The notes under the pieces: model-generated
What the model was told of the DNA's origin: nothing
What the model saw: the letters and a program-made list of their open reading frames with translations, nothing else
The model's database searches: none
Shown here: piece by piece, positions 4,326-13,392 of the stretch
Layout: every line of letters begins with the position of its first letter
Numbering within the stretch: the stretch's first letter is position 1
Translations under genes and position numbers: made by a program
NCBI GenBank assembly: GCA_016182605.1
Contig: JACPGE010000060.1
Location: 9,807-73,806 of the forward strand
Direction: 5' to 3'
DNA: 64,000 nucleotides
Origin: Candidatus Hydrogenedentota bacterium
Lineage (GTDB): Bacteria > Hydrogenedentota > Hydrogenedentia > Hydrogenedentales > JAEUWI01

Positions 4326-5948
4326 TCAAGGCGGGGATGCGGAGGCCCCGTGATCCTGCACGGTTTGGCCCGCGGGGTTCAACCTGTACAAGACCAGCCG
4401 GCCCTGCACGGATTCGGGCGTGTCAAAATAGTGGATGGGTTCCAGCCGGCTCAGGAAGGCAGGACCGTCGTAACCGCCGCGCCGGACCTTCTGCGGATTG
4501 CTGAGCATCGTCTCGAAATCGCAGATATATGTGATCGGTACAGCGTCCACATAAGCCGCCAGCCGCATCTCCCGTGCGTAGGAGTAAATGTCGTTGTTGA
4601 CCAGGCCGTCGAGGTTCACAATATGCCCGCCCTCGAAATAGCCGAGTATGCCTGCATTCCAACTGCCCACGTGACCGGGCAGTTTCGCCTCCTTCAAGTA
4701 CTGCGCGGCATCGTACGCTGCCCGCTGGTAGGGCCATTCGGGATCGCTTCGCGGCGCGCTTCCCGCCAGCATCTGACGCGCGCAAAGCAGGCCCAGGATC
4801 GCGATCGCAGCCGTGCCCAGGGGAGTCCTCGTGCGCAGGTGTGCCGCGGGCAATGCAATCATCAGAAAAAGTGGCGCCACGAGATTCGCGGTGTACCACA
4901 GTTGCACCGACACGGGGTTGAGCGCGTAGAGCACGATGTAGCCCGCCGTGGAAAGTGCGCTGCCGGTCCACAGCAGCCGGGATGCATCGTCCCTCCAGGG
5001 TGTGGCCCCGGAATTTTCCGCCGTGCCCTGGCGGCGCTGGCGCACCCATGCCACTCCCACCCAAATAGAGATCGGAATCAACGCGCTGACCAGTGTCTCG
5101 GTCACAAGCGTCTTGTCCCCAAAGAGCGCGAATACCTGGTTCATGATCGGCCGTGCGGTGGGGCCGTACTGTTCCATCCAGAGCTGTTTCATCCGCGCGC
5201 TGGATTGCACCGCCTCGCCCGTGAAAGCGAAATTGTGCACGAACAGAAGCAGCACCCCGCTTGCCGCGCCCGCCACCCCGGAGGCCGCGCACAGCACCGG
5301 CTTCCATCCATGTTCGGCGCGCAGGCACAGCCACGCTGCGGCCAGGATCGACGCAGGCAACAGCCCAAAATCGGCCCGCGCGAGGCTCCCGGCCAGGCCG
5401 CAGCAAAACAGGGCCACTGCAAGGCGGCGATGCCGGCCGCCAGCGATGCCCCCGCTCAACATCAGGTACACGCCCGCCAGCGAAACCACCCAGCTCCACT
5501 CCATGGCCGATACCAGGTTCATGGAAACATTCCGCGACAGCATAAGGATCAGGAACAGCATGGCAGGCGCGATCCGGTTCGTGCGTATCGTGTAGCTGGT
5601 GCCAAGCGCCAGGGCAGGCAGGCCGGCCGCCACCGTAACGAGCATGCCCAGCAGCACAAAGGCCTCGGTCCCCGGCTGCAGCGCGGCGTAGAGTGCCGCG
5701 AGCACATAGGCATGCAAGGGATGAAAGCCGCTCGTGGTGCTCACGCCCGAGTCAAAGCTCCAGACGCCATCCACCGCAAAACTGCGGGCCAGGCCGAGAT
5801 AATAGAAGGCGTCGTCCGGCAGCAGCCCGATTCGCGAGAGCGGTGATCCGGCGAGATGCCCCAGTAGCGGGATCGCAACCGCCACCGCCCCAACGGCCAC
5901 CAAGCCGGGAACGGCCGCGCGCGATACGTACGTGCCTGAGCCTCTCAC
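4326..5948 (-). CDS. Large polytopic membrane protein, paralog of 219..2852 (GT-C-like fold suspected)
   Basis: The ORF track extends to 6572, but the upstream part is antisense to a well-supported GNAT gene and is low-complexity. The likely real start is a GTG at 5948, preceded by AAGGGA. Motif LLPDDAFYYLGLARSF, multiple TM helices, and a C-terminal soluble domain similar to the paralog. Confidence 0.5.
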   Translation of the reverse strand: MRGSGTYVSRAAVPGLVAVGAVAVAIPLLGHLAGSPLSRIGLLPDDAFYYLGLARSFAVDGVWSFDSGVSTTSGFHPLHAYVLAALYAALQPGTEAFVLLGMLVTVAAGLPALALGTSYTIRTNRIAPAMLFLILMLSRNVSMNLVSAMEWSWVVSLAGVYLMLSGGIAGGRHRRLAVALFCCGLAGSLARADFGLLPASILAAAWLCLRAEHGWKPVLCAASGVAGAASGVLLLFVHNFAFTGEAVQSSARMKQLWMEQYGPTARPIMNQVFALFGDKTLVTETLVSALIPISIWVGVAWVRQRRQGTAENSGATPWRDDASRLLWTGSALSTAGYIVLYALNPVSVQLWYTANLVAPLFLMIALPAAHLRTRTPLGTAAIAILGLLCARQMLAGSAPRSDPEWPYQRAAYDAAQYLKEAKLPGHVGSWNAGILGYFEGGHIVNLDGLVNNDIYSYAREMRLAAYVDAVPITYICDFETMLSNPQKVRRGGYDGPAFLSRLEPIHYFDTPESVQGRLVLYRLNPAGQTVQDHGASASPP

Positions 5949-6080
5949 TGCGTCCCTTCGATCCCCGGTCTGCCCCGAAATTTGTGTGGCATGATATATC
6001 AAGGCGCTGGCCCCCTTCGAGATCGCCTGCCGCCCGCGCTTCCCGTATACTGTCGCCAACCCAATGAGGCGCCCCCCGCA

Positions 6081-6575
6081 ATGACCTTCTCTTTCCTGCC
6101 CCCCGCCAGGCCGCTCGTCGACGGCGAATTGACCCTGCACTTGAAGTGTGCCGATTGGGAAATCTCCGACCGGATCCGCGTGCCGGTCTACCGCTTCATC
6201 ATGTTCCAGGAGGGCATCGAGGAGGAGGCCGGACACATCAACCTGCGCCTCGGAAACACGGACACCATCCTCCGCTATCAGGGCCACATCGGTTACGCCG
6301 TCCGCCCGCCGTTTCGAGGCCGGCGCTTTGCCGCCCGAAGCTGCCGCCTCGTGTTGCCCATCTTCCAGGAACACGGCTTCACCACCGTCTGGGCCACCTG
6401 TAACCCGGAGAACGTCGCCTCGCTCTGCTCCCTCGAACTGGCCGGCGCGGTCTTCGTGGAAGAAGTGGATATTCCGCAGAGCTATCCCGCCTATTGGCAG
6501 GGCGAGCAGGCCAAATTGCGTTACCGCTTCGATCTCTGGAGTCTGCTGCAGCAACCGAAGCAGGGATGGCAATGA
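6081..6575 (+). CDS. GNAT family N-acetyltransferase (RimJ/RimL-like)
   Basis: MTFSFLPPARPLVDGELTLH...GHIGYAVRPPFRGRRFAARSCRLVLPIFQEHGFTTVWATCNPENVASLCSLELAGAVFVEEV. Typical GNAT core (Q/RxxGxG/A-like motif FRGRRFAA). Confidence 0.75.
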   Translation: MTFSFLPPARPLVDGELTLHLKCADWEISDRIRVPVYRFIMFQEGIEEEAGHINLRLGNTDTILRYQGHIGYAVRPPFRGRRFAARSCRLVLPIFQEHGFTTVWATCNPENVASLCSLELAGAVFVEEVDIPQSYPAYWQGEQAKLRYRFDLWSLLQQPKQGWQ

Positions 6576-6759
6576 TTAAAACCGATGATAGACGACGCTG
6601 TTTGTGTTGGTAATATAACTTTATAAGCGGTATTAATTCAAAGCCCTTCTTATTCCCGCGCATTGGACAAAACACAAAATATAAGGCAAAATAACTGTTG
6701 AAACAATAATTGTTGAAACTTGTATTGGCTCGGCAACACCCCGAAAGGAGCATTCCACC

Positions 6760-7458
6760 ATGATTACCCTGCGCAAATCCAATGAACGCGGCGGCGCCGA
6801 CCACGGTTGGCTGAAAACACGCCACACCTTCTCCTTCTCCACCTACTACGATCCCGCGCACATGGGGTTCCGTGCCCTGCGCGTCATGAACGAGGACTGG
6901 GTCGCGCCGAGCCAGGGTTTTGGAAAGCATCCCCACGACAACATGGAGATCCTCACCTACGTGCTCGAAGGCGCACTGAAGCACCAGGACAGCATGGGCA
7001 ATGGCGAGGTGGTGCACGCGGGCGAACTCCAGCGCATGAGCGCCGGCACCGGCATACACCATAGTGAGTTCAACGCCTCGCAGGAGGACCCCGTGCGCCT
7101 CTATCAGATCTGGCTGCTGCCCGGCCAGCGGGGCCTCGAACCGGGCTACGAACAGAAAGCCTTCAGCCCGGAAGACAAGAAAGGCAGGCTGCGCCTCGTC
7201 GCTTCACCCGCCGGAGAAGACGGCGCCCTGACCATTCATCAGGACGTCCGTATCTACCTCGCGGGACTGACCGCGGGAGAAAGCCTTGCGCACACGCTCC
7301 AGCCCGGCCGCCACGCCTGGGTGCAGGTCATCTCTGGCGCGGCGAGCGTAAACGGTCAGGCCCTGAAAGCCGGGGACGGCGCCGCGATTTCAGACGAAAC
7401 CACGCTGACGCTTGCGGGCCGCACCGACGCCGAGATCATGCTCTTTGACCTAGCCTGA
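6760..7458 (+). CDS. yhhW: Pirin-family protein (quercetin 2,3-dioxygenase YhhW-like)
   Basis: [84 protein letters not shown] is near-collinear with E. coli YhhW ([66 protein letters not shown]). Strong RBS AAGGAG 8 nt upstream. Confidence 0.9.
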   Translation: [232 protein letters not shown]

Positions 7459-7544
7459 TGCCGCCCCGCTTAGAACGGCGGACCAGGAGAAGTCCAACAA
7501 GATCGGTTTTGAGCACCAAGGGCACTATTCTGAACGGCGCTAAC

Positions 7545-7700
7545 ATGTTGCAGTCTCACTCCAATCACGCCGCTCGGCGGGCAACGGGCTACCATTTTGG
7601 CACGCCCAAACAGGCCTTCGCTCGCCGGGCAGCCTGCCACCATTTAGACACGCCACCCAAGTAGGCCTTCGCTCGCCGAGCGTAGGCATTCCGCGTCGAA
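7545..7700. repeat. Partial inverted copy of the interspersed repeat unit (module carrying 'aggccttcgctcgccg' twice)
   Basis: ctcactccaatcacgccgctcggcg...cccaagtaggccttcgctcgccgagcgtaggcattcc matches the reverse complement of 8455..8535 and the left part of 54790..54850. Confidence 0.7.
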
Positions 7701-8143
7701 GTACCTCGTCCCGCACCCCTCTACACACGGCCACACTTCATCACAAAATCCAGATCAATCCGGCTTTCGTAGCTCCCAATTTCAATTGGGAGTTCGAATC
7801 CCAAACCTCTGCGCGCTTACGTCGACGCATTCACGCACACACCCATTGTCATCTCGAACGCAGTGAGAGATCTCCCAAGGGGACTGTACCCGCCGGAAGG
7901 CAATAGGCCTACCCGGCGGAAAGATCTTCCACCGGCGGGGACTGTACCCGGGCCCCAATCACGCACACCCCGCAACCCCAACCACCCTGCTATCCCGAAC
8001 CCTTCCCTGTCATCTCGAACGCAGTGAGAGATCTCCCCGGGGAGCGCCATGCGCCGCGACGTGGACCACAAAAAGCTGGGGCGGTCTTATTTTCCAGGAA
8101 TGTCCGGTCCCTTGGGGCTCAGACATTCCTTATAGTAACCACG

Positions 8144-8213
8144 TTGGTTATCCACAGCCGACAGCAAGGCCACCTCGGTTGGCCTTCGTCGGCTGTCGGG
8201 TGTGGATAACCAA
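8144..8213. repeat. Long imperfect hairpin (about 30-bp stem, 8-nt loop)
   Basis: ttggttatccacagccgacagcaaggcc acctcggt tggccttcgtcggctgtcgggtgtggataaccaa. The outer 13 bp are perfectly complementary. Confidence 0.6.
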
Positions 8214-8368
8214 CCGGCTGGGGATGCAGTATTTCTGGCGTAACCCAAACTCGGTTTGGGCGGCGACGGCTCCTTCCGCGCCCCGCGCATCCCTCCAGCC
8301 GCAAGGACCGGCGCCCGATCCCATTCCCGCGTGTTCGACACCCGCGTCTCCGCCCGTTGATTCTCCAA

Positions 8369-8760
8369 GGAAAATTCGGGGCAGTAACCATTTTTTGCAG
8401 GATTCTCGCCCGGTTGACGGGGTGTAAGCTGGTACCTTGACGAGGAATGCCTATGCTCGGCGAGCGAAGGCCTACTTGGGTGGTGTCTAACAGGTAGCAC
8501 GCTGCTCGCCGAGCGGCGTGATTGGAGTGAGACCGCAAGTGTTAGCCCGCATATTTCACCACTTCAAGGTTTCTTGGCAACGAGTTCGACTTGGAAGATG
8601 GTGAAAAATGCTCAGCGTGGCGATGGTGCTGGCGTTCACCGGGCAGGCTAAATCACGGGCTGTTTGTTATTCCCAAGCTTGAAGTTGGGACAACGATATG
8701 TATGAATGGGTGTTACGACTACATCGTTTGGAGCCCGTGATTTATCCGAGTACACGGTCC
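8369..8760. repeat. Composite copy of the interspersed repeat family (minus orientation relative to the 54790 copy). It carries module R1, the 'gtgaaatatgcggg' module, the 50-bp core and its hairpin partner
   Basis: 8369..8540 is about 85% identical to 9249..9425 (direct). 8546..8662 is the reverse complement of 54905..55082. 8741..8759 (gagcccgtgatttatccg) pairs with 8644..8662 (ggctaaatcacgggctg) to form a 12-bp stem around a ~75-nt loop. Confidence 0.75.
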
Positions 8761-8876
8761 ATGCACCGTATTTCGACACAGGTACAACGCCGGCCGGGCA
8801 GGTGTGGCACGGACGCGGCTGCCAGCGATCCTCCACACTCACCGCTCCCACCCGTTTCGAAACAACATCCCTCATT

Positions 8877-8925
8877 CCCATCCGTGTGCATCGGTGTTCA
8901 TTCGTGGTTTGATTCCCTCAAGAAC
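8877..8925. repeat. Short direct repeat (copy 1 of 2; copy 2 at 9138..9185)
   Basis: cccatccgtgtgcatcggtgt.cat.cgtggtttgattccc is shared by both loci. Copy 1 is followed by an inverted repeat gttcattcgtggt...accacgaatgaac. Confidence 0.6.
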
Positions 8926-9248
8926 CAGGCCATCAATCAGACCACGAATGAACGCCAATACACGCGAATAAGACACAAGAACACGCCGGACCCCATGCCC
9001 ATCCTTCCCATTCCTCTTTCAGTGTGCTCCCTGTGTTCCGTGGTCGGCGAAGCGCTATCCTTAGTCCCCGCCCCGCCCCCGCGTTTCGCAAAGTCCATCC
9101 CGTCCATCAGGTCCATGTAGCCAGTCCACACGCCCCTCCCCATCCGTGTGCATCGGTGTCCATCCGTGGTTGATTCCCCCCAGTACCAACGTTTCGCCCG
9201 CCCTTCAACTCCTTTGCGACTTTGCGGCTTTGCGTGAGACAACTTTCC

Positions 9249-9425
9249 GGGAGAAATTGTGGACAGTAACCATTTTTGCAGGATTCTCTCCTGTTTGACG
9301 GGGTGTAGACAGGCGCTTCGACGTGGAATGCCTGCGCTCGCCGAGAGCGAAGGTCTACATTGGTGGCGTGCTTCATGGCAGCGCGCTGTTCGCCGAGCGG
9401 CGTAACCGGGGCGAGGCGGGAAAAG
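9249..9425. repeat. Second direct copy of repeat module R1
   Basis: gggagaaattgtggacagtaaccatttttgcaggattctc...gacggggtgta...ggaatgcct.cgctcg.cgag.gcgaagg.ctac aligns to 8369..8540. Confidence 0.7.
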
Positions 9426-9573
9426 TAAGCGCCATTCGGAGCGGTCCCCGGCAAAATCGATTGCACCATTTCAACCTTCGCAGACTTTTTCCGCTCTGGC
9501 CTTTGATCGGTGGACCGGGAGAAGCTACAGTAGTGTTGGAATCCTAAAGGCATTGCCAGGAGGCCGACACCCC

Positions 9574-10212
9574 ATGTATCTCTTCGCCGGAACCGCCATT
9601 CTTGCTGCACTGAGCCTGCTGGTCATCGTCAGCCTGATCTGGCGCTGGGCCTCCACGCGCCAGGCCCTGCCGTGCCCCTCCCAGTTCTCCTGGATGCTGG
9701 AAAACCCCCTCATGAACCAGATGGCGGGCGCCACCCGGCTCTTCGACTTCCTCGATCTGCGGCCCGGCATGACGCTTCTCGATGTGGGCTGTGGTCCGGG
9801 CCGCATGACGGTGCCCGGCGCGCTCCGCGTTGGCACGGAAGGCCGCGTTCTCGCGCTCGACATGCAGGAAGCCATGATCCGGAAGGCCCAGAACCGCGCA
9901 CAGCAGGCTGGCCTCACCAACATCGAGTTCATTCTGAAAGGCATGGGTGAGGGGGCGCTCCCAGCGGCATGCTGTGATCGCGCCATCCTGGTTACCGTCC
10001 TCGGCGAAATCCCCGATCGGGCCGCCGCCCTCCGTGGCATCCACACCGCCCTCCGCCCCGGCGGCCGCCTGTGCATTGCGGAGATCCTTCTCGATCCCCA
10101 CTACCAGCCCCGCGCCCGCGTCGAAGCCCTCGCACGCGAGACGGGCTTCACGCTCGGTCCGTATCAGGGCGGCTGGATCTCCTACACACAGATTCTGGAG
10201 AAGCCGGAATAG
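9574..10212 (+). CDS. Class I SAM-dependent methyltransferase with an N-terminal TM anchor
   Basis: RBS CAGGAGG 8 nt before the ATG at 9574. TM helix LFAGTAILAALSLLVIVSLIW. Motif I LLDVGCGPGRMT and the post-I acidic residue (LALDMQEAM). Motif IV-like DRAILVTVL. Confidence 0.75.
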   Translation: MYLFAGTAILAALSLLVIVSLIWRWASTRQALPCPSQFSWMLENPLMNQMAGATRLFDFLDLRPGMTLLDVGCGPGRMTVPGALRVGTEGRVLALDMQEAMIRKAQNRAQQAGLTNIEFILKGMGEGALPAACCDRAILVTVLGEIPDRAAALRGIHTALRPGGRLCIAEILLDPHYQPRARVEALARETGFTLGPYQGGWISYTQILEKPE

Positions 10213-10258
10213 CGGGTTTGGAATCGTTTGGCACGGACAACCCGAGACATGAGCATTT

Positions 10259-11512
10259 TCATGTGCCTTTATCACGAAGTAGACAGTTCTTGACCGAATA
10301 CCAGTCGGCTTGCTCAATGCCTTTGACGAAGGGAATCACTTTCTCGTCGCCAATGAGCCGTTCCCATTTCCTTCTTATGGCACCACGTGCAAGCTCTTCC
10401 ATACGTGAAGCATTGGGATCAACGACAGCCAGTCGATGAGATTCTGAAGAGCATAGCCAATCCAAGAGACGGGCGTTTATGACTTTGTCACCAAAACTGT
10501 ATCCGCATACAACTAGGTAGTCTGTCGTCAGCAGGTTCTGGTGAAACATGACTTGAAGTTCTGCGAAGATTCCATAGTTGTACTCCAGGAGCTTGTTGAA
10601 AGTTCCCATTAACATCAGTGGTCCTCTTACATGCCAGAGTTCGTGCCTTTCACCAAGTTCGTTCCTGGCGTGATAAGGATCGCGGTCCAATGATTTTCCA
10701 ACGCATTGGCTTTGCCATACGGGGCCTGGCGATGGGAACGAGTACCAGTCGACAGAGCCATGCAGTTTAAATATACGAACCTTTGCATTTGAGTGCGACA
10801 GGTCATTCCGGTTCCAGTGCAATACGTTTCCTCTGTGATCGCAGAAACCGTCCGAATACGGAACTCCGAAAGATCGAAAGAGTTCTTCAAGGATGGTGTC
10901 GTGATTCAAAGTGTAAATGTCGATCTTTGAGAGGGATCCATCGCGAGAGGCGGAGAGTAGGAACGACAATGCCCAAAGTCGGTTCGGAGTCTTCCACAAT
11001 TCGTTCTCCACGACATCGCGGATATAGGTGCATACCTCATTCAACAGTGGCGTGAGTTCCCAATTTTCATGCAGTTCACCAGGTTTATGCTGCAGAATTT
11101 TGAGAACAGCCGGCATCTTAAGCAGCTTTTCGTACAACGCCTGAACTGCGGGGTTCTCGTACTCGAAGTGATCGCTGTCTGAAAGCTGACGTGCACAAAA
11201 ATAGAGGTCTTCGTAATTCGTCTGATGCCGCCCAAAGGTCTTGTAGAACTCTGCTTCATTGCTCAGCGAGTGTCGGCCACAGTGAAAAAATCCGTCTACT
11301 TCGTCCTTTAGTATTTGGAGCAGCGCAGTGACTCGAGGAACATATACTTCCTGAGACTCAAAATCTTCGCGAACTCTATCATCAAATTCGTAGTTGCCGC
11401 AGGTGTGCCGTCGGTAGTTCACACCAGCCAGGACTGTGCTCGTCAGGCTCGCCGTTGAAGGCTTTCCAACGGGAATAGATGTTCCCGCGCCGCAGACGAT
11501 GCCAACTCTCAT
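10259..11512 (-). CDS. SIR2-like (sirtuin superfamily, SIR2_2-type) NAD-binding/NADase-like protein
   Basis: Nucleotide-binding loop VGIVCGAGTSIPVGKPS (compare sirtuin GAGIS.E.GIP). Asn motif IYTLNHDTILEE (compare TQNID). Catalytic-His motif KLHGSVDWY (compare sirtuin LHGS). Second Rossmann strand VVCGYSFGDKVIN. The gene GC (~48%) is well below its neighbours (~63%). Its start codon overlaps the stop of the upstream ATPase gene (ATGA). Confidence 0.75.
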   Translation of the reverse strand: MRVGIVCGAGTSIPVGKPSTASLTSTVLAGVNYRRHTCGNYEFDDRVREDFESQEVYVPRVTALLQILKDEVDGFFHCGRHSLSNEAEFYKTFGRHQTNYEDLYFCARQLSDSDHFEYENPAVQALYEKLLKMPAVLKILQHKPGELHENWELTPLLNEVCTYIRDVVENELWKTPNRLWALSFLLSASRDGSLSKIDIYTLNHDTILEELFRSFGVPYSDGFCDHRGNVLHWNRNDLSHSNAKVRIFKLHGSVDWYSFPSPGPVWQSQCVGKSLDRDPYHARNELGERHELWHVRGPLMLMGTFNKLLEYNYGIFAELQVMFHQNLLTTDYLVVCGYSFGDKVINARLLDWLCSSESHRLAVVDPNASRMEELARGAIRRKWERLIGDEKVIPFVKGIEQADWYSVKNCLLRDKGT

Positions 11513-12708
11513 GTGGTCGTTCCCAAAGTATCGTTTTTTCTGTTGGGTCGTACGCTAGAATCCATTGAGTAATTCAGGCCCGTCAATTCCCCACCCACGG
11601 GGACCGTGCTCACCTTGTCCCCCAGCGGATAGGCCTTGTCCCCCGGATAAACAACCCATAAATGCTCCAGTTCCAAATCCTCCAGCGCACTGCGCATCGA
11701 ACGCGTGATCCGCGGCGCGTCGGCGTACTTCACCTCCACGGCCCAGTTCTTGCCCCGATCCTGCCAGAAGAGATCAACCTCGGCGCCGGAGTGCGTGGCC
11801 CAGAAGTAGAGTTCTTCCTTCCGTTTGCCAAGCGCCCGCGTTACGGTCTCCAACGCAAAGCCTTCCCAGGACGCGCCGAGCTTGTTGTGGGTCGCGAGAT
11901 CTCCCGCTGTGCGCGCCGAGAGCAGGGTGTGAAAGAGCCCGGAATCGCGGAAGTAGATCTTGGGCCGTTTGACAAGGCGCTTCCCCACGTTCGCATGCCA
12001 CGGCTGTAACAGCCGGATCATAAAGGTCCCTTCGAGGACGTCCAGGTAGCGCCGGACCGTTGCGTCGGACACGCCGAAGGAACGGGCGAACTCGGAGTAG
12101 TTCATCAACTGGCCATGATAGTGACAGAGCATGGTCCAGAAGCGCCGCAACGCGGCCGCGGGAATATCAATGCCGAGTTGCGGGATGTCACGCTCCAGGA
12201 AGGTGGCCACATACTGCTCGCGCCACAAGTGGCTCGCCGCATCGCTGTCCGCTGTGTATGCGCGCGGCAGCCCGCCCCGCAACCAGAGGGACCGCCAATG
12301 TTCCGTGCCCACGTCTTCGAGCCGGAATCCCCCCAATTCATGGTAGGCAATGCGCCCCGCCAACGACTCTGCCGATTGCCGGATAAGATCCCGCGATGCA
12401 CTGCCCAAGATCAGGTAGCGCTGTCCAGGGCGGGTGTCGACGAGGTGGCGCAACAGGGGGAAGAGGTTGGGAGCCCGCTGTATTTCGTCGATGACGATCA
12501 GACCCGAAAGGGGCTCCAGAGCCAGTTGCGCCTGCTCCATCATGACCGCATCCCGAGGATTTTCCAGATCGAAGAAGTGCGCCGCCGGAAAAGCCCGTGC
12601 AAGACACGTTTTCCCGGCCTGACGCGGCCCCAAGAGAGCAGTCACGGGAAAGTGTTCCAATAAGGCACGAATGGCCTCTGTATCGGCATGCCGGGCTATC
12701 ATAGCCAC
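11509..12708 (-). CDS. P-loop ATPase fused to a PD-(D/E)xK nuclease-like C-terminal domain (AAA_14/DUF4143-like by motif recall)
   Basis: Walker A LLGPRQAGKTCLA and Walker B LIVIDEIQRAPNLF. The C-terminal region GAEVDLFWQDRGKNWAVEVKYADAP has a D...E.K arrangement typical of the restriction-endonuclease fold. 399 aa. Translationally coupled to the SIR2-like gene. Confidence 0.7.
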   Translation of the reverse strand: MAMIARHADTEAIRALLEHFPVTALLGPRQAGKTCLARAFPAAHFFDLENPRDAVMMEQAQLALEPLSGLIVIDEIQRAPNLFPLLRHLVDTRPGQRYLILGSASRDLIRQSAESLAGRIAYHELGGFRLEDVGTEHWRSLWLRGGLPRAYTADSDAASHLWREQYVATFLERDIPQLGIDIPAAALRRFWTMLCHYHGQLMNYSEFARSFGVSDATVRRYLDVLEGTFMIRLLQPWHANVGKRLVKRPKIYFRDSGLFHTLLSARTAGDLATHNKLGASWEGFALETVTRALGKRKEELYFWATHSGAEVDLFWQDRGKNWAVEVKYADAPRITRSMRSALEDLELEHLWVVYPGDKAYPLGDKVSTVPVGGELTGLNYSMDSSVRPNRKNDTLGTTT

Positions 12709-12780
12709 ATTTTAGCGCATTATCATTGAAAATTCAATGTGATGCGACGAAATTTCAATAATAAATCACTTGCGCCACAC

Positions 12781-13197
12781 TCAGCGGTGCCGAACCATAT
12801 AATCCATGGCCGCGTTCGCAAGTAGGCCGGAACGGGTCTGGCCATGGGACACTGCCCATTGGTCGACCGCTTCGAGTACGTATTCCGGAAGCGTGATGTT
12901 TATCCGTTGGGCACGGCCGGTCGGGAGTTCAATGCCGATTTGAGCAAGAACCACCCGGTGCCCTTCAGACTCGTAGTCGGCGATCAACTCCAGCAGCCCG
13001 GCTTCGTCGCCGCCCGGGGGAATGGGATCGCCGTCGTCCACCATGGATTGCACATGCAGGGAAAGGGCCTCGGCGGCACGGCGTTGTGCATCCTCGAGCG
13101 TAGGAGCCACCGTGACGCATCCGGGAAAATCGGGAAACGCGACATCGATCTGAACGGAACCCAAGCCTGCAAAGATAGCCTGGTAATATCGAATCAC
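12781..13197 (-). CDS. hicB: HicB-family antitoxin (type II TA)
   Basis: 138 aa. N-terminal HicB/UPF0150-like fold (MIRYYQAIFAGLGSVQIDVAFPDFPGCVTVAPTLEDAQRRAAEAL). C-terminal ribbon-helix-helix-like region (INITLPEYVLEAVDQWAVSHGQTRSGLLANAAM). Sits immediately downstream of hicA. Confidence 0.75.
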   Translation of the reverse strand: MIRYYQAIFAGLGSVQIDVAFPDFPGCVTVAPTLEDAQRRAAEALSLHVQSMVDDGDPIPPGGDEAGLLELIADYESEGHRVVLAQIGIELPTGRAQRINITLPEYVLEAVDQWAVSHGQTRSGLLANAAMDYMVRHR

Positions 13198-13209: not shown

Positions 13210-13392
13210 CTACTTCAGTCCTGCCTGCCGCAGGATGCTGTTAACCGTGCCCTTCTTGAGATCCTTTGCGGGATGCGGAACGGTAACTTTGCCCGGTTTT
13301 ATTGGATGGTCGAAGTGATGGTGATCGCCTTTGACGGCTTTCAATTGCCAGCCATCGCCCTTGAGTATCTGGATGATCGTTCTACTGTCCAC
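13210..13392 (-). CDS. hicA: HicA-family toxin (mRNA interferase)
   Basis: 60 aa. MDSRTIIQILKGDGWQLKAVKGDHHHFDHPIKPGKVTVPHPAKDLKKGTVNSILRQAGLK matches the HicA consensus (..LEK.GW..VR.KGSHH.F.HP.KPG.VTVPHP.KDL..GT..SILKQAGL). Confidence 0.85.
   Translation of the reverse strand: MDSRTIIQILKGDGWQLKAVKGDHHHFDHPIKPGKVTVPHPAKDLKKGTVNSILRQAGLK

Follow-up and report, generated by a model that had tools for sequence, protein, structure and literature searches.

Probable juxtaposition of two single-gene modules, a PDC-S01-type ATPase gene and a solitary SIR2 gene, in a Candidatus Hydrogenedentota genome

The 64,000-nt stretch of DNA analyzed here (the window; positions 9,807 to 73,806 of contig JACPGE010000060.1 from a Candidatus Hydrogenedentota bacterium) carries a P-loop ATPase gene (open reading frame [ORF] A) and, directly 3' of it, a gene for a SIR2-like protein (ORF B), both on the minus strand. 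ORF A lies at 11509..12708 and encodes 399 aa when read from a GTG; its true start is likely the ATG at 12702, which gives 397 aa and is favored by the family consensus "MIxRP..." as well as by the NCBI model. ORF B lies at 10259..11512 and encodes 417 aa, and the junction between the two genes (...ACC ACA TGA / ATG AGA...) forms a 4-nt ATGA overlap. Both proteins are 100% identical to those of a Candidatus Hydrogenedentes metagenome-assembled genome. A preliminary description of this DNA, made without database searches, had proposed that the pair is a two-gene anti-phage module, with the ATPase as partner of a SIR2 effector. The ORFs, the overlap, and every motif quoted in that description are present, and the motifs are conserved among 66 relatives of the ATPase and 33 relatives of the SIR2 protein. 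The comparisons reported below nevertheless point, in our judgment with good probability, to two autonomous single-gene modules that were juxtaposed head to tail by an insertion, and not to a recurring two-gene immune system.

The domain architecture first suggested for ORF A was borne out by a Pfam search, which returned AAA_14 (PF13173; 7.9e-20) and DUF4143 (PF13635; 5.7e-46, covering 1-160 of 160 positions). The protein can be described as an AAA+ ATPase followed by a winged helix-turn-helix (wHTH) and a PD-(D/E)xK nuclease-like domain. In the Walker A motif GPRQAGKT (residues 27-34; 12607..12630, on the minus strand like the other ORF A and ORF B features below), G27, R29, Q30, G32, and K33 are present in 66/66 relatives, as are D74 and E75 of the Walker B motif IVIDEIQ (residues 71-77; 12478..12498). 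The D...E.K arrangement that had been noticed toward the C terminus is the PD-(D/E)xK core E310-x-D312...E325-x-K327 (EVDLFW...AVEVKY, residues 310-328; 11725..11781), in agreement with the listing of DUF4143/COG1373 as a PD-(D/E)XK family of unknown function (PMC3424549) and with its assignment to PD-(D/E)xK elsewhere (PMC12988326). E310 and D312 are kept in 66/66 relatives, and E325 and K327 in 65/66. An AlphaFold2 (AF2) model of the protein, poor overall (predicted local distance difference test [pLDDT] score, 57), contains a C-terminal core of alpha-beta-beta-beta-alpha-beta order at pLDDT 77-88, in which strand 2 bears D312 and strand 3 bears E325/K327.

The preliminary description did not count an ATPase partner of this architecture among the named SIR2 systems. 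For the ATPase, however, seven PADLOC models of PDC-S01 match, the best being PDLC04790 (6.2e-82, 273 bits). PDC-S01 is an unvalidated single-gene phage defense candidate, an ATPase fused to a PD-(D/E)xK domain, and it ranks as the 4th most common "defense" call across prokaryotes (PMC12988326). The one PDC-S01 representative assayed in the literature gave no protection against T4, T5, or T7 in Escherichia coli B (bioRxiv 10.1101/2024.09.26.614923), and the main text of the source paper of the PDC models mentions neither PDC-S01 nor SIR2. ORF A shares with PDC-S01 the AAA_14 ATPase plus PD-(D/E)xK architecture, a full-length match to the hidden Markov model (HMM), and solitary relatives; it differs in having an unconserved 18-residue tail and a SIR2 gene downstream. 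The search for relatives yielded at least 8,000, with every scored candidate at E<=1e-20. The 119 best listed, with the self-match excluded, are 71-79% identical, mostly 378-391 aa long (typically 379), and cover ~88-97% of the query. Sequence search found no solved relative (top match, 2qen at E 0.04), and the subfamily was absent from the viral contigs searched. Outside its tail, the ATPase does not depart in sequence from solitary members of its family. The protein presumably acts alone as an ATP-dependent DNA-binding nuclease with a candidate role in defense.

ORF B, too, has the architecture first proposed for it, its sole Pfam match being SIR2_2 (PF13289; 5e-10). The NAD-binding glycine loop GAGTS (residues 8-12; 11477..11491) opens the longer motif GAGTSIPVGKPS (residues 8-19) and falls directly after beta1 in the family alignment and the AF2 secondary structure. 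The predicted catalytic residues are N203-H204-D205 in TLNHD (residues 201-205; 10898..10906) and H251 in KLHGS (residues 249-253; 10760..10762); in a profile alignment, N203, D205, and H251 fall on N163, D165, and H212 of the Paenibacillus protein PsSIR2 (residues according to PMC11472057). All 33 relatives carry D205, K249, H251, and G252, and nearly all carry H204. Most of them also have N203, but in 7/33 its place is taken by C or S (TLCHD/TLSHD) while H204, D205, and H251 are retained, a substitution that may point to different chemistry or to inactive proteins in one subclade. AF2 modeled ORF B with high confidence (pLDDT 90.2; predicted template modeling [TM] score, 0.90). In profile comparisons, the solved structures nearest to ORF B belong to SIR2 subunits of SIR2-HerA systems (8w9l at 2e-18, 8j4u/8su9 at 5e-12, and 8yhx at 1.6e-10), and the same subunits are the best Foldseek matches of the model (E ~1e-11, TM 0.5-0.63), with ThsA, SPARSA, and DSR2 at lower ranks (1e-5 to 1e-4).

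These comparisons, and the absence of a Zn-ribbon CxxC, agree with the earlier proposal that ORF B is an immune-type, NADase-like protein. A CobB-like deacetylase was considered and rejected: there is no match to PF02146, there are no CxxC pairs, and the first classical sirtuin in the fold search, 3jwp, is 50th at 1.5e-4. What ORF B has in common with classical sirtuins (CobB/Sir2Tm/Sir2Af) is Rossmann-fold NAD binding and the catalytic His. With Thoeris ThsA, DSR1/DSR2, and the SPARSA SIR2-APAZ protein it has the fold of SIR2 NADase effectors in common, and it presumably depletes NAD+ as they do. It differs from ThsA in lacking SLOG/STALD and a ThsB/TIR neighbor (Foldseek, 3.6e-5); from DSR1/DSR2, which are ~1000 aa with a C-terminal sensor, in being a single-domain protein of 417 aa without the ~600-aa sensor (PADLOC Dsr2 match, 0.0047); and from SPARSA in lacking APAZ and a prokaryotic Argonaute neighbor. 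PADLOC SIR2/Aga_SIR2 models match it only partially, at ~1e-18.

The closest known system is SIR2-HerA (Nezha/GAO_19), whose SIR2 subunit resembles ORF B in length (~400 aa), in its catalytic N, D, and H, and in having a Rossmann fold interrupted by a large helical "small domain." In that system SIR2 alone is autoinhibited by the helical small domain and is activated by HerA, which grips its N-terminal alpha1 helix (PMC11472057, PMC11514289); the alpha1 helix is required in SaSir2 (PMC11514289). ORF B, by contrast, is only 12-17% identical to these proteins and has no HerA-docking alpha1: its model opens with a strand at residues 2-7, whereas 26 residues precede the equivalent strand in EcSIR2. 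No HerA-like ORF was found in the window or beside SIR2 genes of the same family, and a hidden HerA partner was rejected on this ground; HerA was seen only beside distant SIR2 genes (loci L072, L075, L076, L082, and L085). ORF B is a HerA-less relative of these proteins and not a member of SIR2-HerA.

The family around ORF B is large. An exhaustive profile search gave 9,934 representatives at 50% identity with E<=1e-3, of which 1,112 had E<=1e-30. Nearly all of the best 150 matches are 360-430 aa long (303-452 overall) and aligned over nearly their full length. Judged by its sequence, ORF B belongs to a large family of solitary single-domain proteins of ~400 aa; relatives were sought in plasmid and phage collections, and none were found there. 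Because of its homology and its conserved catalytic residues, it is presumed to act as an NADase. ORF B would presumably be an immune-type, autoinhibited enzyme that depletes NAD+ when triggered (abortive infection) and has no need of the ATPase. The solitary family as a whole (>1,100 clusters at 50% identity) may be an unrecognized single-gene NADase defense family. It is nearest to the SIR2 of SIR2-HerA, yet lacks both HerA and the HerA-docking helix.

Whether the ATPase-SIR2 pair recurs was assessed from both sides. The ATPase-side sample consisted of 80 metagenomic loci whose ATPases are 44-77% identical to ORF A, 68 of them with >=300 nt and 47 with >=1.2 kb of downstream sequence; the SIR2-side sample consisted of 86 loci, namely six places with the four nearest relatives and 80 genomic loci obtained with the family profile. 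A SIR2 gene was found in 0/80 ATPase loci, either by tblastn with 33 family queries or with the family HMM. In the other direction, tblastn of the ATPase against the SIR2 loci gave one partial match, in locus L037, and an HMM built from 66 ATPase relatives and used to search the full set of 6,913 stop-to-stop ORFs in these loci matched only in L036 and L037 (described below). No ATPase of this type was present in 15 viral contigs with distant SIR2 relatives, and a Pfam search of 20 ATPase-sized SIR2 neighbors found no AAA_14/DUF4143 protein among them; they were instead a trypsin-TPR protein, an integrase, lyases, transporters, and unknowns. The proposed two-gene module thus finds no intact counterpart in 80 ATPase loci, 86 genomic SIR2 loci, or 15 viral SIR2 loci, and the pairing is unique to the window's population.

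The SIR2 genes do not keep company with any other gene either. In an all-against-all BLAST comparison, the 84 immediate neighbors of 52 same-family SIR2 genes fell into 82 singletons, and the family is therefore without a recurrent partner of any kind, contrary to the expectation that the two genes would be conserved as neighbors. Since 48/54 same-family loci have >=1.2 kb of upstream sequence, the pairing test had power. The two nearest relatives of ORF B (60% and 40% identical, also from Hydrogenedentes) occupy different loci, neither with the ATPase. The 60%-identical gene (P0002 in locus L001, logan contig SRR12113422_93570) was recovered from the metagenome sample that also gave the window's gene. 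It has a beta-lactamase-fold gene on one side and a PSCyt/PSD1 gene on the other and lies 15 GC points (guanine plus cytosine) below its flanks, a setting consistent with movement of the SIR2 gene among Hydrogenedentes genomes. The 40%-identical gene (locus L002, Hydrogenedentiales) is followed at 50 nt by a gene for a 456-aa protein with no Pfam match (7248-8618) and is preceded at 94 nt by one for a DUF6036 protein (5457-5906); neither neighbor was seen with other family members. Across the family the neighbors are heterogeneous, many of them housekeeping genes and a minority related to defense or mobility (type I and II restriction endonucleases, a DRT reverse transcriptase, PD-T4-6, a ThsA-like protein, an integrase, and insertion sequence [IS] transposases).

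The composition of the junction suggests how the two genes came to overlap. GC content is 0.490 in the SIR2 gene, 0.620 in the ATPase gene (native), and 0.610 in the window, so that the lower GC noted earlier for the SIR2 gene is real, with an offset of 12-13 points and not ~15. In a 100-nt profile, a low-GC segment at 10213..11585, probably the acquired DNA, takes in only the SIR2 gene and a short leader, with values of ~0.45-0.53 in most 100-nt intervals and 0.60 in 11401-11500; on one side of it lies the host-GC ATPase gene and on the other a convergent host-GC methyltransferase gene. The offset had been taken as the mark of a recently shuffled or acquired effector. The SIR2 gene, however, is below its flanks in GC in 47/52 loci; the median difference is -5.8 points, and the two nearest relatives show -14.9 and -13.7. 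Because low GC is a family-wide trait, the offset gives no date for an insertion.

The end of the ATPase frame is more telling. Among 77 readable loci, the relatives' stop codon falls at the equivalent of query residue 381 in 32 and at 380-383 in 51, directly after a conserved C terminus of the form "...LPLxxVxxxWxYE". The window's ATPase keeps a recognizable "...VPVGGELTGLNYS", including the invariant Y380, but has no stop after it. Translation would continue through 18 further codons (MDSSVRPNRKNDTLGTTT; 11512..11565), which the relatives' stop position, the drop in GC, and a pLDDT of ~30 mark as a non-native extension in the low-GC leader of the SIR2 gene. This read-through, predicted by AF2 to be disordered, stops at a TGA overlapping the start codon of the SIR2 gene. 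Judging from the sequence of the junction, we infer that the ATGA overlap is an insertion scar left by loss of the ATPase's native stop.

Taken together, these data favor, with fair assurance, the juxtaposition of two autonomous modules by insertion. The resident PDC-S01-type gene would have been self-contained from its inverted-repeat operator/promoter to its ...WxYE stop, and a horizontally moving, low-GC, solitary SIR2 gene would have entered at precisely this stop codon, after which the ATPase frame would have come to read 18 foreign codons and to end at the TGA overlapping the SIR2 ATG. A consensus scan found no promoter-like site between the ATPase and SIR2 genes, and expression of the SIR2 gene from the ATPase promoter is therefore probable here, presumably with translational coupling. 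The SIR2 protein itself would work as its solitary relatives do, as a self-contained, autoinhibited NADase independent of the ATPase. Read in this way, the locus is a clean example of a defense-type gene that landed on a neighbor's stop codon and was captured into its transcription unit. It is also a cautionary case, as an ATGA overlap joined to an attractive pair of domains can come from a single insertion event.

Several observations weigh against juxtaposition. The 4-nt overlap, the common strand, and the lack of a promoter between the genes make co-expression very likely and a functional interaction possible. The nearest solved SIR2 proteins are inactive alone and need the P-loop ATPase HerA (PMC11472057, PMC11514289), and by that precedent an ATPase partner for ORF B would be conceptually attractive. 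Sampling was finite: no scan covered more than 80 loci, and many contigs were short. Loci L036 and L037, which are related to each other and come from Latescibacterota, provide a second, independent adjacency of the SIR2 family to a decayed DUF4143 gene. In both, the DUF4143 match is a C-terminal fragment on the opposite strand, convergent with the SIR2 gene; direct reading of L037 showed its copy to be an AAA_14/DUF4143 pseudogene with a frameshift, in which the Walker A sequence GPRHAGKT is still visible. The direct traces of an insertion were also sought. Direct or inverted repeats flanking the low-GC segment amounted to short chance matches only, comparison of the window's SIR2 flanks with those of the closest relative, L001, showed homology of the coding sequences alone, and no syntenic SIR2-less empty site (hicAB / ATPase / methyltransferase) was found among 166 loci; the insertion is therefore inferred and not directly demonstrated. 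As a side observation, the SIR2 proteins of L036 and L037 (region at ~5674-7900; protein P0098) are fused to an N-terminal Xre/HigA-type helix-turn-helix and are 500-504 aa long.

The first alternative is that the locus holds a newborn two-component abortive-infection system, in which the PDC-S01 ATPase-nuclease would sense foreign DNA and would activate the SIR2 protein in HerA's role. We regard this as unlikely. Intact catalytic residues in both proteins speak for it, together with the overlap, the probable co-transcription, and the dependence of the nearest structural relatives of ORF B on a P-loop ATPase; yet the pair does not recur in the 80 + 86 + 15 loci, and both families are otherwise solitary. 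The overlap itself stems from an unconserved 18-codon read-through, and outside this tail the ATPase is unchanged relative to solitary relatives. The Latescibacterota adjacency, which could be counted in favor, involves a DUF4143 copy that is convergent and pseudogenized. Had the proposed pair been a system, it would have been a new SIR2 defense architecture; the evidence says that it is not.

About equally unlikely, in our view, is a housekeeping or regulatory role for ORF B, as a sirtuin-like deacylase or ADP-ribosyltransferase in a locus unrelated to phage. The immune role of the family is a prediction from sequence and fold, many of its neighbors are housekeeping genes, 7/33 members have C or S in place of the TLNHD Asn, and the NCBIfam equivalog for anti-phage SIR2 is not matched (16 bits versus a cutoff of 500). 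Against this stand the SIR2_2-only Pfam result, with neither PF02146 nor a Zn-ribbon, and best matches by both sequence and fold that are all defense SIR2 proteins. A patchy distribution across phyla, low GC relative to the flanks, and variable loci are, moreover, typical of a mobile accessory gene, and some of the neighbors belong to defense or mobility (restriction endonucleases, DRT, PD-T4-6, the ThsA-like protein, integrase, and transposase).

A working hybrid, in which the tailed ATPase-nuclease would gate the HerA-less SIR2 through translational coupling or direct contact, by analogy with HerA in Nezha, is a slightly weaker candidate still; were it true, the locus would be a snapshot of a two-component abortive-infection operon being born. 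Finally, a chimeric contig joining the DNA of two organisms at the GC shift is highly improbable and was rejected: the change at the junction is abrupt (13 points), but host-GC DNA lies on both sides of the low-GC gene in a single contig, and two independent assemblies, of runs SRR12113422 and SRR12113421, give an identical ATPase/SIR2 junction, which argues against a chimera.

Upstream of the ATPase gene is a cis element that bears on its autonomy. A conserved inverted repeat of the ATTGAAAT...ATTTCAAT type (12726..12758) is a probable operator that overlaps the -35 box of a promoter-like site found by consensus scan, TTGAAT-17-TAAAAT (12709..12737; hexamers at 12737-12732 and 12714-12709). 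Only 6-7 nt separate the end of the -10 box from the ATG at 12702, which suggests a leaderless ATPase mRNA; relatives keep this distance as well as the spacing between the -35 and -10 boxes. The family consensus is tcATTGAAAtaTCAT...TTGAnATTTCAATG-N9-TAnnaT-N7-ATG, an inverted repeat around a -35-like box; it can also be written ATTGAAAtaTCAT...TTGAnATTTCAATG-N9-TAnnaT-N7-ATG (window positions 12709-12758 and the equivalent upstream regions of L087-L166). The element is present upstream in 53/67 ATPase loci, compared to 3.2% of control windows and 6% of shuffles. Its conservation probably marks the ATPase gene as a self-contained, operator-controlled unit, with the ATPase's own wHTH as a candidate binder of the inverted repeat. 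The element also offers a handle on the regulation of PDC-S01, one of the most abundant candidate "defense" calls.

Immediately upstream of the ATPase gene, also on the minus strand, is a hicA/hicB toxin-antitoxin pair: hicA (60 aa; 13210-13392) and hicB (138 aa; 12781-13197), the latter encoding a protein with HicB_lk_antitox and RHH_5 domains. Its adjacency to the ATPase gene is not conserved among ATPase relatives, the sole exception being one weak HicB-like match in L129. The genes beyond hicAB are of the housekeeping kind (a P-type ATPase, miaA, and mutL), and the locus is a three-module islet, not a large defense island. Rfam and tRNA scans over the whole window gave no matches. Some 2.1 kb at 7460-9550, past the methyltransferase side, are repeat-rich and have no convincing ORF, Rfam match, or tRNA. 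An element of ~160-175 nt occurs there in three copies, two direct (8372-8546 and 9254-9430) and one inverted (7548-7706), along with a 44-nt repeat (8877/9139), a 35-nt repeat (7847/8008), and a hairpin with 23-bp arms (8143-8214). This stretch could be made up of elements resembling miniature inverted-repeat transposable elements (MITEs) or of a repeated noncoding RNA.

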